From: an uncultured Candidatus Saccharibacteria bacterium | GTDB lineage: Bacteria > Patescibacteriota > Minisyncoccia > Minisyncoccales > JAGGXC01 | DNA length: 40,881 nucleotides | Assembly (NCBI GenBank): GCA_964391535.1 | Contig: CAYMMJ010000001.1 | Coordinates: forward strand, 1 to 40,881 | Reading direction: 5' to 3' | Shown here: positions 35,106 to 40,881 of the stretch, piece by piece | How positions within the stretch are numbered: the first letter of the stretch is position 1 | Layout: the number at the start of each line of letters is the position of its first letter | The notes under the pieces: generated by a model | What the model was told of the DNA's origin: nothing | Seen by the model: the letters and a program-made list of their open reading frames with translations, nothing else | Database searches by the model: none | Made by a program: the position numbers and the translations under genes

Positions 35106-35798
35106 ATGTTGACTATTTCTGCAAAGACCAGAGAAAAATTAAAAAGAAAAGCAAAACTACTAAGGAAAGAAAAAAAGATTCCTGCTGTTTTGTATGGCCA
35201 CAAAGTAAAAAGTACTCCCCTTGAGATTGATTATAGAGATTTTGAAAGAATTTATAGAGAAGCAGGAGAAAGCTCTTTGGTTACTTTGAAGATTGAAGGA
35301 GACAAAAAAGCATATCAGGTTCTTGTGCATGATATTCAAAGAGATCCTTTAAGTGGGGAATTCATACATGTTGATTTTTATCAACCTTCTCTAACCGAAA
35401 AAACAGAAGCAAATATTCCTCTGAAGTTTGTTGGAGAATCTGAAGCTGTTAAAAACTTAGGCGGAACATTAGTTAAAAATATCTTAGAAGTAGAAGTAAA
35501 AGCATTTCCTCAAGATCTTCCGCACGAAATAGAAGTTGATATAAGCAAGCTTAAAACTTTTGATGACCATATAAAAATTTCCGACTTAAATCTTCCAGAG
35601 AGAGTAGAAATAATTAGGGATCCTGGAGAAATCATAGTTTCTGTCACACCTCCTCAAAAAGAAGAAGTTGAAAAACCAAAAGAAGAGGAATCTAAAGAAG
35701 AAAAAACAGAGAAGAAAGGAGAGAAGACAAAAGAAGAGGAGAAGGAAGACAAGCAAGAAAGAAAGAAACAAGAAGGAGAGCAAAAAGGGGAGAAATAA
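35106..35798 (+). CDS. rplY: 50S ribosomal protein L25 / Ctc form (bL25) with a Glu/Lys-rich tail
   Basis: KKIPAVLYGHK........DY..F......AGESSL..L.I.G......VLVHD.Q.DP.....IHVDF. Two-domain Ctc length plus a low-complexity tail. Confidence 0.9.
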   Translation: MLTISAKTREKLKRKAKLLRKEKKIPAVLYGHKVKSTPLEIDYRDFERIYREAGESSLVTLKIEGDKKAYQVLVHDIQRDPLSGEFIHVDFYQPSLTEKTEANIPLKFVGESEAVKNLGGTLVKNILEVEVKAFPQDLPHEIEVDISKLKTFDDHIKISDLNLPERVEIIRDPGEIIVSVTPPQKEEVEKPKEEESKEEKTEKKGEKTKEEEKEDKQERKKQEGEQKGEK

Positions 35799-35805
35799 AG
35801 TTTCT

Positions 35806-37206
35806 ATGAAAGAGACATTTGTTAGAGTCAAAAAAGCACTTTTGATTATTTTACTGGTAGTTCTTGTTTTACCAGGGATCAAGATATTGGCTCAGGTAAA
35901 TGAAGATATGGAAAAGATTTGCGAGATGGATAGAATTGAGTCGGAGTGTGACAAAATTTCTCCTACTGATTGTCGTAAACTCCTTGAAAAATGCGATAAA
36001 TATTTTCAAGAAAAGAGTGCGGAAATTGAAAGAGATATTTCTCGCACCGAGGCAGAGAAAAAAACACTCCAAAATCAGATATATGTTTTGAGGAATAAAA
36101 TAAAAAGCCTTGATTACCAGATATATCAGAATAACTTGATGATAAAAGATCTAAATTTTCAGATTGAAGATACTCAGTCATCAATTGAAAAAACAAGCAA
36201 CAAGATAGAAGAATCAAAGAGAAAATTAACCAACATTCTTAGAGAAATTTACGAACAAGATCAGCGCTCTACTATTGAAATCCTTCTGGGAGAAAATGAA
36301 TTGTCTGATTTTTTTGACAATTTAGTTGCCCTGGAGGCTCTTAATGCTAAAAACCGTGAACTTCTGCAAGATATAAAGGCTTTAAAGTCCGAATTAGAAA
36401 ATCAGAAAGAAGCATTAGACGAAGAAAAGGGAGAGTTGGAAAGCGCAGTGAAAATTCAGATGTTACAGAAACAAGAAAGCGCTAAAACTAAGAAACAACA
36501 GGAGTATTATCTTAAATTAACTGAGACAGAGTACCAGAAGCAAATTAAAGAAAAACAAGAGATTGAGAAAAAAGCAGCAGAGATTAGGTCACGGATATTT
36601 GAATTAATTGGCGTTCCTAAAGCTCCCACTTTTGGTGAAGCATTAGAAATTGCCAAGTATGTAGAAACACTTACTGGTATTAGACCAGCGTTTTTATTAG
36701 CTATCCTAACTCAGGAGTCGAACATTGGAAAAAACGTGGGGCAGTGCTATTTAACCGATCCAAAAACCGGTGCAGGTATATATGTTAAAAGCGGAACAAA
36801 AACCTCGCGGGTTATGAATCCTAAACGCGATGTAGGACCGTTTTTAAGTATTTGTAAGGCTCTTGGTAGAGATCCTTATCATACATTAGTTTCCTGTCCA
36901 ATGAGTTATGGTTGGGGAGGAGCAATGGGGCCTGGTCAATTTATTCCTTCCACTTGGGTTTTATATAAGGATAAAGTCAAGTCTGTTATTGGTAAAGATC
37001 CAGATCCTTGGGAGATAAAAGATGCTTTTCTTGCAACAGGTATTTATCTAAAAGAACTTGGAGGAACCCAAAATGAATGGAGAGCAGCAATGAGGTATTT
37101 CTCCGGAGCTACCTGGAAAAAGTATGAAGAGTTTTATGGAAATTCAGTAATATCCTTAGCTAAGAAATATCAGTCAGATATTGAAGTTCTTGAAAGTCAA
37201 AAGTAG
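35806..37206 (+). CDS. Secreted or membrane-anchored coiled-coil protein with a C-terminal MltB-like lytic transglycosylase domain
   Basis: N-terminal helix ALLIILLVVLVLPG and a long heptad-rich region. The C-terminal domain has LAILTQESNIG (catalytic Glu-Ser context) and GAMGPGQFIPSTW. ATG 35806 is preferred. The track start at 35668 runs through the L25 tail in another frame. Confidence 0.7.
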   Translation: MKETFVRVKKALLIILLVVLVLPGIKILAQVNEDMEKICEMDRIESECDKISPTDCRKLLEKCDKYFQEKSAEIERDISRTEAEKKTLQNQIYVLRNKIKSLDYQIYQNNLMIKDLNFQIEDTQSSIEKTSNKIEESKRKLTNILREIYEQDQRSTIEILLGENELSDFFDNLVALEALNAKNRELLQDIKALKSELENQKEALDEEKGELESAVKIQMLQKQESAKTKKQQEYYLKLTETEYQKQIKEKQEIEKKAAEIRSRIFELIGVPKAPTFGEALEIAKYVETLTGIRPAFLLAILTQESNIGKNVGQCYLTDPKTGAGIYVKSGTKTSRVMNPKRDVGPFLSICKALGRDPYHTLVSCPMSYGWGGAMGPGQFIPSTWVLYKDKVKSVIGKDPDPWEIKDAFLATGIYLKELGGTQNEWRAAMRYFSGATWKKYEEFYGNSVISLAKKYQSDIEVLESQK

Positions 37207-37231: not shown

Positions 37232-37260
37232 AAAAAACTCACCTTTGCGGTGATTTTTTT
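37232..37260. terminator. Bidirectional intrinsic terminator between convergent genes
   Basis: A6 (37232-37237), TCACC (37239-37243) / GGTGA (37249-37253), 5-nt loop, T7 (37254-37260). Confidence 0.55.
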
Positions 37261-37275
37261 AATATTTTCTTAATA

Positions 37276-38028
37276 TTATTTTAGAAGTTTGTTTATCTTT
37301 TTTATAATAGGATCTAATTTTCCGTCTAATATTTTATCGATATCGTGCCATGATTTTTTTATTCTATGATCTGTTATTCTATCCTGAGGGAAATTGTACG
37401 TTCTTATTTTTTCTGCTCGGTCAGCCGATCCTATCTGGGTTTTTCTTTCTCCTGCCAGTTCTTCTTGGGTTTTTTTTCTTTCTATTTCTAAAAGCCGGGC
37501 CGCCAAGATGCTTAAGGCATTTTCTTTATTTTCTAGTTGGTTTCTTTCAGTTTGTGAGGTTACTACTATACCTGTAGGAATATGAGTAATTCTTACTGCC
37601 GTTTCTCTCCGGTTTACATACTGTCCCCCGGGACCAGATGCTCTATAGTAATCTATTTTTAAATCTTCTGGTTTTATTTTTATTTCTGTCTTTGTTGGTT
37701 TTGGCAAAATAGCTACACTAGCAGTGGAAGTATGAATTCTTCCTCCTTTCTCTGTTTTTGGGATTCTTTGTACTCTGTGGACGCCTGCTTCGTGCCGTAA
37801 TTTATCCCAGGTGTTCTCTCCCTTTAGTTCAAAGATTACCTGTTTTATGCCACCCAGCGAAGTAGGATGAGAATCTAATAATTTTTGTGTCCATCCCTGA
37901 GATTTAGCGTAGTTAGTATACATCCGAAATAAGTCATTAGCAAAAAGAGCCGCTTCTTCTCCTCCAGCTCCTGCTCGTATTTCAACAATTACTGCCTTAC
38001 TTTCATTTTTAAAAGCAGAATCACTCAT
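37276..38028 (-). CDS. prfA: Peptide chain release factor 1 lacking N-terminal domain 1 (250 aa)
   Basis: RVQRIPKTEKGGRIHTS carries the PxT tripeptide typical of RF1, not the SPF of RF2. SGPGGQYVN carries GGQ. The protein begins at the equivalent of about E. coli RF1 residue 100 (EIRAGAGGEEAALFANDLFRMY). Confidence 0.85.
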   Translation of the reverse strand: MSDSAFKNESKAVIVEIRAGAGGEEAALFANDLFRMYTNYAKSQGWTQKLLDSHPTSLGGIKQVIFELKGENTWDKLRHEAGVHRVQRIPKTEKGGRIHTSTASVAILPKPTKTEIKIKPEDLKIDYYRASGPGGQYVNRRETAVRITHIPTGIVVTSQTERNQLENKENALSILAARLLEIERKKTQEELAGERKTQIGSADRAEKIRTYNFPQDRITDHRIKKSWHDIDKILDGKLDPIIKKINKLLK

Positions 38029-38030
38029 TA

Positions 38031-38273
38031 TTACTTTTTATGTTTTGATTTTTCTTTATTTATCCTTTCTTTTTTTGCTAATCTTTTTCTGAATTTTTCT
38101 ACCCTTCCCATTTTATCTATAATTTTCCCTTTTCCTGTATAAAACGGATGACAGTTAGAACAAATCTCAATTTCAATAAATTCTTTAGTTGATCCAACTT
38201 CAAAAATATTTCCACATGCGCACTGGACTTTTGCTTTTGGATAGTATTTGGGGTGTATGTCTTTTTTTGGCAT
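38031..38273 (-). CDS. rpmE: 50S ribosomal protein L31 (bL31), zinc-binding type A
   Basis: KKDIHPKYY...CACG...[11 protein letters not shown]. Its stop codon is 2 nt from the prfA ATG. Confidence 0.94.
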
Positions 38274-38286
38274 AATTTATATATTT

Positions 38287-38315
38287 ATATTAACTAAGAT
38301 AATAATAAAAATCAA
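38287..38315 (-). promoter_or_regulatory. Proximal rpmE promoter TTGATT-17-TAATAT
   Basis: Reverse complement of 38310-38315 is TTGATT, and of 38287-38292 is TAATAT. The rpmE ATG (38273) is 13 nt after the -10, so the leader is only a few nt. Confidence 0.45.
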
Positions 38316-38334
38316 GCAGGGCGCCAAGATATTA

Positions 38335-38485
38335 AATAAAGATGGTGTGTTAATGACACACCATATAATGAACAGAAAAGTGGAAGAGGAAAGGTACCCT
38401 TTACTTCCTGCTAGGAGGGGATGGGATGCCTCGTTTAGAGAATAAGATAATAGAGTACCTTTCCTCATTGTGCCATTAGGCACAT
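38335..38485 (-). ncRNA. Candidate structured RNA: small RNA or rpmE-prfA leader/attenuator. Strand assignment is tentative.
   Basis: Perfect 12-bp long-range helix (38386-38397 with 38455-38466). Perfect 9-bp hairpin (38342-38350 / 38356-38364) followed on the minus strand by CTTTATTTAAT. 6-bp hairpin (38469-38474 / 38479-38484). Consensus promoter immediately upstream on the minus strand. Confidence 0.4.
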
Positions 38486-38489
38486 TTTA

Positions 38490-38517
38490 ATATTATTCAA
38501 ATTATGATTTTTGTCAA
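38490..38517 (-). promoter_or_regulatory. Promoter TTGACA-16-TAATAT reading toward rpmE
   Basis: Reverse complement of 38512-38517 is TTGACA, and of 38490-38495 is TAATAT. It lies 7 bp from the -35 of the divergent rpsB promoter. Confidence 0.5.
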
Positions 38518-40293: not shown

Positions 40294-40365
40294 GCCACCT
40301 TAGCTCAATGGTAGAGCAACGGTTTTGTAAACCGTAGGTTCGCGGTTCGAGCCCGCGAGGTGGCT
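40294..40365 (+). tRNA. tRNA-Thr (anticodon UGU)
   Basis: Acceptor GCCACCT/AGGTGGC. D-arm AGCTCAATGGTAGAGC. Anticodon stem ACGGT/ACCGT with loop TTTGTAA. T-arm CGCGG-TTCGAGC-CCGCG. Discriminator T. CCA is not encoded. Confidence 0.9.
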
Positions 40366-40514: not shown

Positions 40515-40586
40515 TGGAATAAGGATAGGAAAAGAGAGAACAGTAAATCTTATTTTGTGGGTATTTTTGAGTTGTTCCAAACTTTT

Positions 40587-40881
<295 letters not shown>

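Follow-up and report, generated by a model that had tools for sequence, protein, structure and literature searches.

Textbook bacterial class-I release factors are built of four domains, of which domain 1 is the module that docks onto ribosomal protein L11 and RF3. The prfA gene described here encodes an RF1 of only 250 aa, and it raises the question of whether a protein without this module can be the working RF1 of its genome. The gene lies in a window of 40,881 nucleotides (the whole stretch of DNA that was analysed), which is contig C1 of a 506-kb assembly, from a bacterium of the candidate phyla radiation (CPR), in 54 contigs with an estimated completeness of 96.6%. The features of the gene and of its upstream neighbour are the following.

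37276–38028, minus strand: prfA, a 250-aa RF1 made of domains 2, 3 and 4 only (open reading frame, Pfam, NCBIfam, PDB alignment, AlphaFold, dN/dS)
37753–37761, minus strand: PKT, the PxT 'anticodon' of RF1, residues 90–92 (read from the sequence)
37621–37629, minus strand: GGQ catalytic motif, residues 134–136 (read from the sequence)
38031–38273, minus strand: rpmE, ribosomal protein L31 of 80 aa, with its TAA at 38033–38031 (open reading frame, Pfam, NCBIfam)

By orthology, motifs and fold the prfA product is RF1, and it misses two features that define the family, namely domain 1 and an equivalog-level score. The RF-1 domain of Pfam (PF00472) is complete (E = 3.3e-40), and the PCRF domain (PF03462) is matched over model positions 96–194 of 194 only (E = 3.8e-45). 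The two RF1 models of NCBIfam match from position 100 of 347 (NF001859, 377.7 bits, cut-off 400) and from position 108 of 361 (TIGR00019, 374.7 bits, cut-off 423.25). Both scores fall below the equivalog cut-offs because the first third of the protein, domain 1, is missing. The RF2 model gives the same product 252 bits, against 375–378 bits from the RF1 models. The first-pass annotation had taken the gene for an RF1 with PKT and GGQ that begins at the equivalent of about residue 100 of E. coli RF1 and has no domain 1, and this description was borne out in all its parts. Alignments begin at about residue 99–108, and all models and structures align from about residue 100–108 only.

The remaining domains agree closely with canonical RF1, of which T. 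maritima (1RQ0), T. thermophilus (4V63) and E. coli (2B3T) provide structures. Residues 10–245 of the product aligned without a gap to residues 85–320 of T. maritima RF1 in a phmmer search of the PDB, and equally gap-free to residues 105–340 of T. thermophilus RF1 and 108–344 of E. coli RF1. Over domains 2–4 it is 52–55% identical to the T. maritima and T. thermophilus proteins. The PxT, GGQ, switch-loop and alpha-5 decoding residues of canonical RF1 are all kept, whereas its N-terminal three-helix domain 1 of about 100 aa is absent. The decoding residues that flank PxT, VQRIPKTEKGGRIHTST, align with VQRVPVTESGGRIHTST of T. maritima RF1. An AlphaFold prediction that drew on 53 short orthologues (pLDDT 81.8, pTM 0.78) fits the compact form of T. 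maritima RF1 seen in the crystal; Foldseek aligned it with 1rq0 over 238 columns at a TMq of 0.82–0.83 and an rmsd of 2.1–2.6 Å. With the acidic domain 1 (pI about 5) lost, the protein has a pI of about 9.8.

Domain 1 is not hidden upstream of the gene, as had also been argued from the sequence at first sight. An in-frame stop three codons 5' of the ATG (38028–38026, minus strand) closes the frame at 253 aa, and a complete rpmE (Pfam Ribosomal_L31, 5.6e-29) ends 2 nt (38030–38029) before the ATG in a different frame. A read-through fusion of L31 and RF1 was considered and ruled out: the A of the prfA start codon lies 5 nt from the first base of the rpmE stop, which puts the genes in different frames, and in relatives with the short form the spacing ranges from −14 to +80 nt.

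The termination machinery of the genome

We examined which other termination genes accompany the short prfA. Only two class-I release factor genes are present in the genome, prfA on C1 and an RF2 gene on C34, so that prfA is the sole RF1-type gene; a second, full-length prfA was not found in this 96.6%-complete assembly. The first-pass annotation had held that TGA is a genuine stop here and that an RF2 must exist elsewhere, and both statements proved correct. The RF2 carries SPF and GGQ, and its gene contains a programmed +1 frameshift site of the classical type (...GGGGGACTGT CTT TGA C...). The 377-aa frameshifted composite scores 425 bits with TIGR00020 over model positions 2–352 of 353. As this product matches the model end to end, RF2 is full length, and TGA does serve as a stop; the question raised in the first-pass annotation, whether RF2 is truncated like RF1, thus has a negative answer. 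Stop codons of 369 long ORFs are TAA in 261, TGA in 56 and TAG in 52. TAG can be read by RF1 only, and its use in 52 of the 369 therefore means that RF1 activity is required.

RF3 is absent from this lineage, which answers another question of the first-pass annotation. No prfC passed the TIGR00503 profile in this genome, in 61 of 61 genomes examined from its order or in 146 of 146 sampled across the phylum, while control genomes with known RF3 were detected. The best TIGR00503 match here is the 700-aa EF-G, whose score of about 190 bits is far from the cut-off of 467. The sole strong RF3-like match in the order is a partial frame of 312 aa with 334 bits (G032:C4:2576-3496). It comes from a genome that is 79% complete and also has no matches for RF1 or L11, and it may be a contaminant or a fragment.

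A search for prmC likewise gave no match in this genome or its family (G000–G006), an absence that for this genome rests on an assembly in 54 contigs and is accordingly not absolute, which in principle holds for other genes too. PrmC-like genes occur in about 19 other genomes of the order whatever the length of their RF1, with no clear link between the two (7 short-RF1 and 11 full-RF1 genomes). These genes all stay under the TIGR03534 cut-off (133–193 bits against 199), and most match from model position 40–55 or so only, in frames of 208–270 aa (for example G051:C7:1974-2681 and G040:C2:4609-5244). PrmC of this order may thus be shortened at its N-terminus as well.

The ribosomal partner of domain 1 is in place. 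L11 is full length (model positions 1–139 of 140) in 58 of the 61 genomes of the order and shows no co-variation with RF1 length among 28 short-RF1 and 26 full-RF1 genomes. Its P-rich helix (ATPAPPvGP), which is the domain-1 contact of RF1 in E. coli (PMC3677378), is equally conserved in both groups, and the entropy of the L11 N-terminal domain is 0.84 in short-RF1 genomes versus 0.89 in full-RF1 genomes.

Short and full-length RF1 across the order

The survey of release-factor lengths, taken up from the first-pass annotation, used one genome per family of the order. RF1 lengths were bimodal, with 27 short forms of 240–253 aa, 29 full-length forms of 342–366 aa, and one exceptional case (G007). 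The short form is thus found in 28 of 57 families when G007, with its unrelated N-terminus, is included. The short proteins all start 3–15 residues before the first strand of domain 2, (V/I)I(V/M)EIR. GGQ is kept in 27 of 27 short and 29 of 29 full-length relatives. RF2 open frames are at least 304 aa long across the whole order sample, RF2 having kept its domain 1 throughout. A hand count over 139 genomes of the class gave about 64 whose match to the RF1 model starts no earlier than position 94, 17 intermediate ones and 58 of full length. An even sample of the phylum, mainly from other classes, contained only a handful of short forms, about 100 of 140 genomes passing the full-length cut-off. 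Genome size does not differ visibly with RF1 length within the order, both groups being at about 0.6 Mb by eye.

The exceptional RF1 frame (L029, G007:C13:3691-7128) is 342–357 aa long; roughly its first 100 aa bear no relation to domain 1, and an internal Met would give a protein of about 273 aa. In that genome rpmE lies on the opposite strand; the locus is rearranged, and RF1 may have acquired a replacement N-terminus.

The short gene is under purifying selection. The dN/dS of short prfA is 0.03–0.11, and 0.03–0.05 in comparison with two same-genus genomes, for which synonymous change is near saturation. Among 53 short orthologues 67 columns are invariant, and these include all decoding and catalytic motifs (P90 and T92 of PxT; G134, G135 and Q136 of GGQ). 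Many orthologues of 240–260 aa, 68–89% identical, are found on independent contigs from JGI, ENA, NCBI and Logan. Same-genus genomes carry the same 250-aa form at 85–89% identity, and the N-terminus aligns among the members of the genus.

The short form is orthologous to canonical RF1 as represented by TIGR00019 and NF001859, and it occupies the same rpmE-prfA locus as its full-length relatives. Directly upstream on the same strand lies rpmE, in 26 short-form loci of the order (the window included) and in 28 of its 29 full-length ones; whichever the length of RF1, the spacing is mostly −14 to +24 nt. Since full-length relatives share it, the tight junction is ancestral.

Domain 1 was lost independently and repeatedly. 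A maximum likelihood tree built from the domains common to both forms intermingles short and full-length proteins. The tree is weakly resolved, 29 of its 54 inner branches being open; its well-supported branches force at least three changes of state, which is a lower bound on the number of independent losses. A single clade of short forms was rejected by the AU test (delta-lnL 123, p = 0.0048). The clearest case is that of G045, with a short RF1, and G051, with a full-length one. They are mutually closest by RF1 (87% aa identity) and also by L11, which lies on other contigs (92.8% aa and 89% nt identity, more than in any other pair). Across rpmE-prfA the two DNAs share about 90% identity, apart from a single clean, in-frame gap of some 290 nt, which removes domain 1 and leaves the first four codons in place (MPDI versus MANI).

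We also compared the middle residue of PxT, encoded in this prfA by 37756–37758. It is Lys or Arg in 17 of 27 short RF1s versus 4 of 29 full-length RF1s of the order, the commonest residue in the latter being Glu. A link of this residue to the short form is not claimed, as a test on phylogenetically independent pairs has only three supported contrasts and no power, and the members of the recent pair G045/G051 both have PET. The net charge of domains 2–4 is +14.7 in short and +11.2 in full-length forms, a raw trend without phylogenetic correction.

Proposed function and alternative explanations

We consider it very likely that this prfA is the sole, functional and general-purpose RF1 of its genome, which has lost domain 1 by an in-frame deletion and works without RF3. 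The deletion would have taken out about 100 codons, corresponding to the N-terminal helical domain 1, and would have retained the original start region and the ancestral tight junction with rpmE. It may have been tolerated because domain 1 is unneeded for codon recognition or catalysis. The gene is predicted to be the downstream member of an rpmE-prfA operon and to be translated there through, in all probability, termination-reinitiation; the first-pass annotation had called the two genes translationally coupled, of which the 2-nt spacing is confirmed and the coupling is what that spacing suggests. UAA and UAG would be decoded through the intact domain 2/4 (the PKT loop, the tip of helix alpha-5 and the switch loop), and peptidyl-tRNA would be hydrolysed through the intact GGQ domain 3.

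Domain 1 bridges the N-terminal domain of L11 and domain 3 of RF3 (PMC3677378). The short RF1 would act as a tRNA-sized, strongly basic factor of three domains that does not touch the N-terminal domain of L11. With RF3 lacking throughout the phylum, it would also be without that partner. Once the peptide is released, it may dissociate from the ribosome unaided or be helped off by intersubunit rotation and RRF/EF-G; spontaneous dissociation is possible for both RF1 and RF2 (PMC6742477). Loss of RF3 is permissive for loss of domain 1 and not sufficient for it: domain 1 is retained in half of the order and in most of the genomes from other classes that likewise lack RF3.

The nearest precedent is an engineered one. 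As cited in PMC1586002, E. coli RF1 without domain 1 kept its codon specificity, release in vitro and function in vivo, and its interaction with RF3 and its stimulation of RF3 were abolished (Mora, Zavialov, Ehrenberg and Buckingham, 2003, Mol Microbiol 50:1467). By that account the truncated protein has the same architecture of domains 2–4 as the product described here, and it was engineered, placed in an RF3-containing host and accompanied by a growth cost. This prfA, in contrast, is natural, under selection and the sole copy in an RF3-less lineage, and its form has arisen repeatedly. Nature would seem to have repeated a laboratory truncation that leaves RF1 working. Reviewer comments in PMC1586002 hint at a biochemical asymmetry between RF1 and RF2, in the role of domain 1 and on ribosomes devoid of L11, and the retention of domain 1 by RF2 would fit these older hints.

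Whether the deletion was adaptive is a separate matter. Loss of domain 1 could be a re-tuning of termination in RF3-less, ultra-small bacteria and not reductive drift, a proposal that we regard as doubtful. E. coli RF1 is the factor most dependent on RF3 for its recycling. Removal of the L11 anchor would, on the adaptive proposal, let RF1 fall off the ribosome unaided, and the extra positive charge on domains 2–4, perhaps together with the Lys of the PxT loop, would restore its on-rate. If true, the proposal would explain why the same clean deletion recurred at least three times in one order, why the short form reaches about half of the class, and why RF2 never underwent the deletion. The sister pair G045/G051 would then be a natural before-and-after experiment.

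Another explanation is that RF1 is being phased out, the short protein being impaired in part while its lineage gives up UAG termination and prfA is headed for complete loss. TAG is indeed a minority stop in this genome, at about 14%. A genome of the same order that is 100% complete in 20 contigs (G024) has only one class-I release factor gene, which is RF2-like (C9:704-1561); it may be a relative without RF1, in which TAG is unused or reassigned, or else the absence may be an assembly gap. However, TAG is about as frequent here as TGA, the short form persists in dozens of families, and the low dN/dS and the invariance of all decoding and catalytic residues are at odds with a decaying gene. 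We hold a phase-out to be improbable.

It also seems very improbable that domain 1 is supplied in trans, through a split gene or through substitution by another protein such as the co-translated L31 with its lysine-rich C-terminal tail. Coupling across 2 nt could favour co-assembly of L31 and RF1, and L31 does have a basic tail of 15 aa beyond the end of its Pfam model. Yet an equally tight junction exists in many full-length genomes and is thus ancestral and unlinked to truncation, and in the short-form genome G007 rpmE is not even on the same strand. L31 sits at the central protuberance and a subunit bridge, far from the L11 stalk. As to a split gene, a domain-1 HMM built from the 29 full-length relatives and the RF2 of this genome was run against six-frame ORFs of at least 30 aa and found RF2 only, the next match having an E-value of 0.085. 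The free-standing domain-1-like ORF that had been thought worth looking for is thus not present among these frames.

That the protein is a specialised rescue or alternative release factor of the PrfH or ArfB kind, and not the general RF1, is hardly credible. PrfH (RF-H, TIGR03072) and ArfB/ICT1 are natural class-I release factor relatives that, like the short RF1, have no domain 1 and keep GGQ. PrfH has decoding motifs of its own and an obligatory RtcB-like partner, ArfB and ICT1 consist of a GGQ domain and a C-terminal basic tail without a decoding domain, and PrfH and ArfB are accessory or rescue factors beside a full RF1. The prfA product does match their models weakly, at 88.4 bits for TIGR03072 (cut-off 166.65) and, over the GGQ region only, 43.2 bits for NF006718 (cut-off 100), far under these cut-offs and far from its RF1 scores. 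Unlike these proteins, it is a sole general RF1 with a full decoding domain, in a genome that uses TAG stops. It retains PxT and all RF1 decoding residues, its upstream gene is rpmE and not an RtcB-like partner, and short forms are interleaved with full-length RF1 orthologues at the same rpmE-prfA locus.

The source assembly is fragmented and of metagenome type, but an assembly or sequencing error at the rpmE-prfA junction, or a pseudogene, can be dismissed, since the dN/dS values, the invariant columns and the orthologues from the same genus and from many independent contigs exclude both.

A functional RF1 of domains 2–4 would matter in several respects. Repeated independent deletions have made a short RF1 normal for roughly half of a very large class of uncultured bacteria, and nature would thereby confirm that RF1 can do without domain 1 whereas RF2 apparently cannot. 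Pairs of related short and full-length factors allow kinetic and structural tests of the role of domain 1 without RF3. Databases label the short RF1s as 'PCRF domain-containing protein' only. Because these proteins fall below the equivalog cut-offs, annotation pipelines may call prfA missing in many CPR genomes. In the literature searched, outside which most subscription journals lay, we found no description of a natural RF1 without domain 1 in the CPR. On this reading a sole RF1 without domain 1 is a new architectural variant of RF1, of which a prior report may exist.

Neighbouring elements of the rpmE-prfA locus

Two further features flank the gene pair.

37239–37253, minus strand: terminator-like hairpin followed by a U-run, 23 nt 3' of the prfA stop (consensus scan)
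38299–38353, minus strand: two overlapping sigma-70-like promoter matches, candidates, upstream of rpmE (9/12 each, a level of which shuffles of the region yield about seven matches)

The hairpin is likely to be the end of the rpmE-prfA transcript, and a bidirectional one shared with the convergent gene on the plus strand. This convergent gene is an ORF of 512 aa (35668–37206, plus strand). Its first 45 residues are extremely rich in Lys and Arg; a hydrophobic stretch comes next, then a long central part resembling a coiled coil, and the C-terminal part is globular.

Between rpsB and rpmE lies an element of 156 nt (38335–38490, minus strand) that folds into three hairpins, one of them with a long stem of about 80 nt, and that ends in a terminator-like hairpin with a U-run about 60 nt before the start of rpmE. 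Its minimum free energy is −53.6 kcal/mol (z = −7.4 versus shuffles). It matched nothing in Rfam at a threshold as lax as E = 1, and a same-genus genome (L018) has a counterpart with about 70% identity over 118 nt. The element could be a small RNA gene or a leader or attenuator of rpmE. Farther along, the window carries a tRNA-Thr (TGT) at 40294–40365 (plus strand) and, at 40585–40881 (plus strand), the first 292 nt of a 16S rRNA that runs off the end of the contig.
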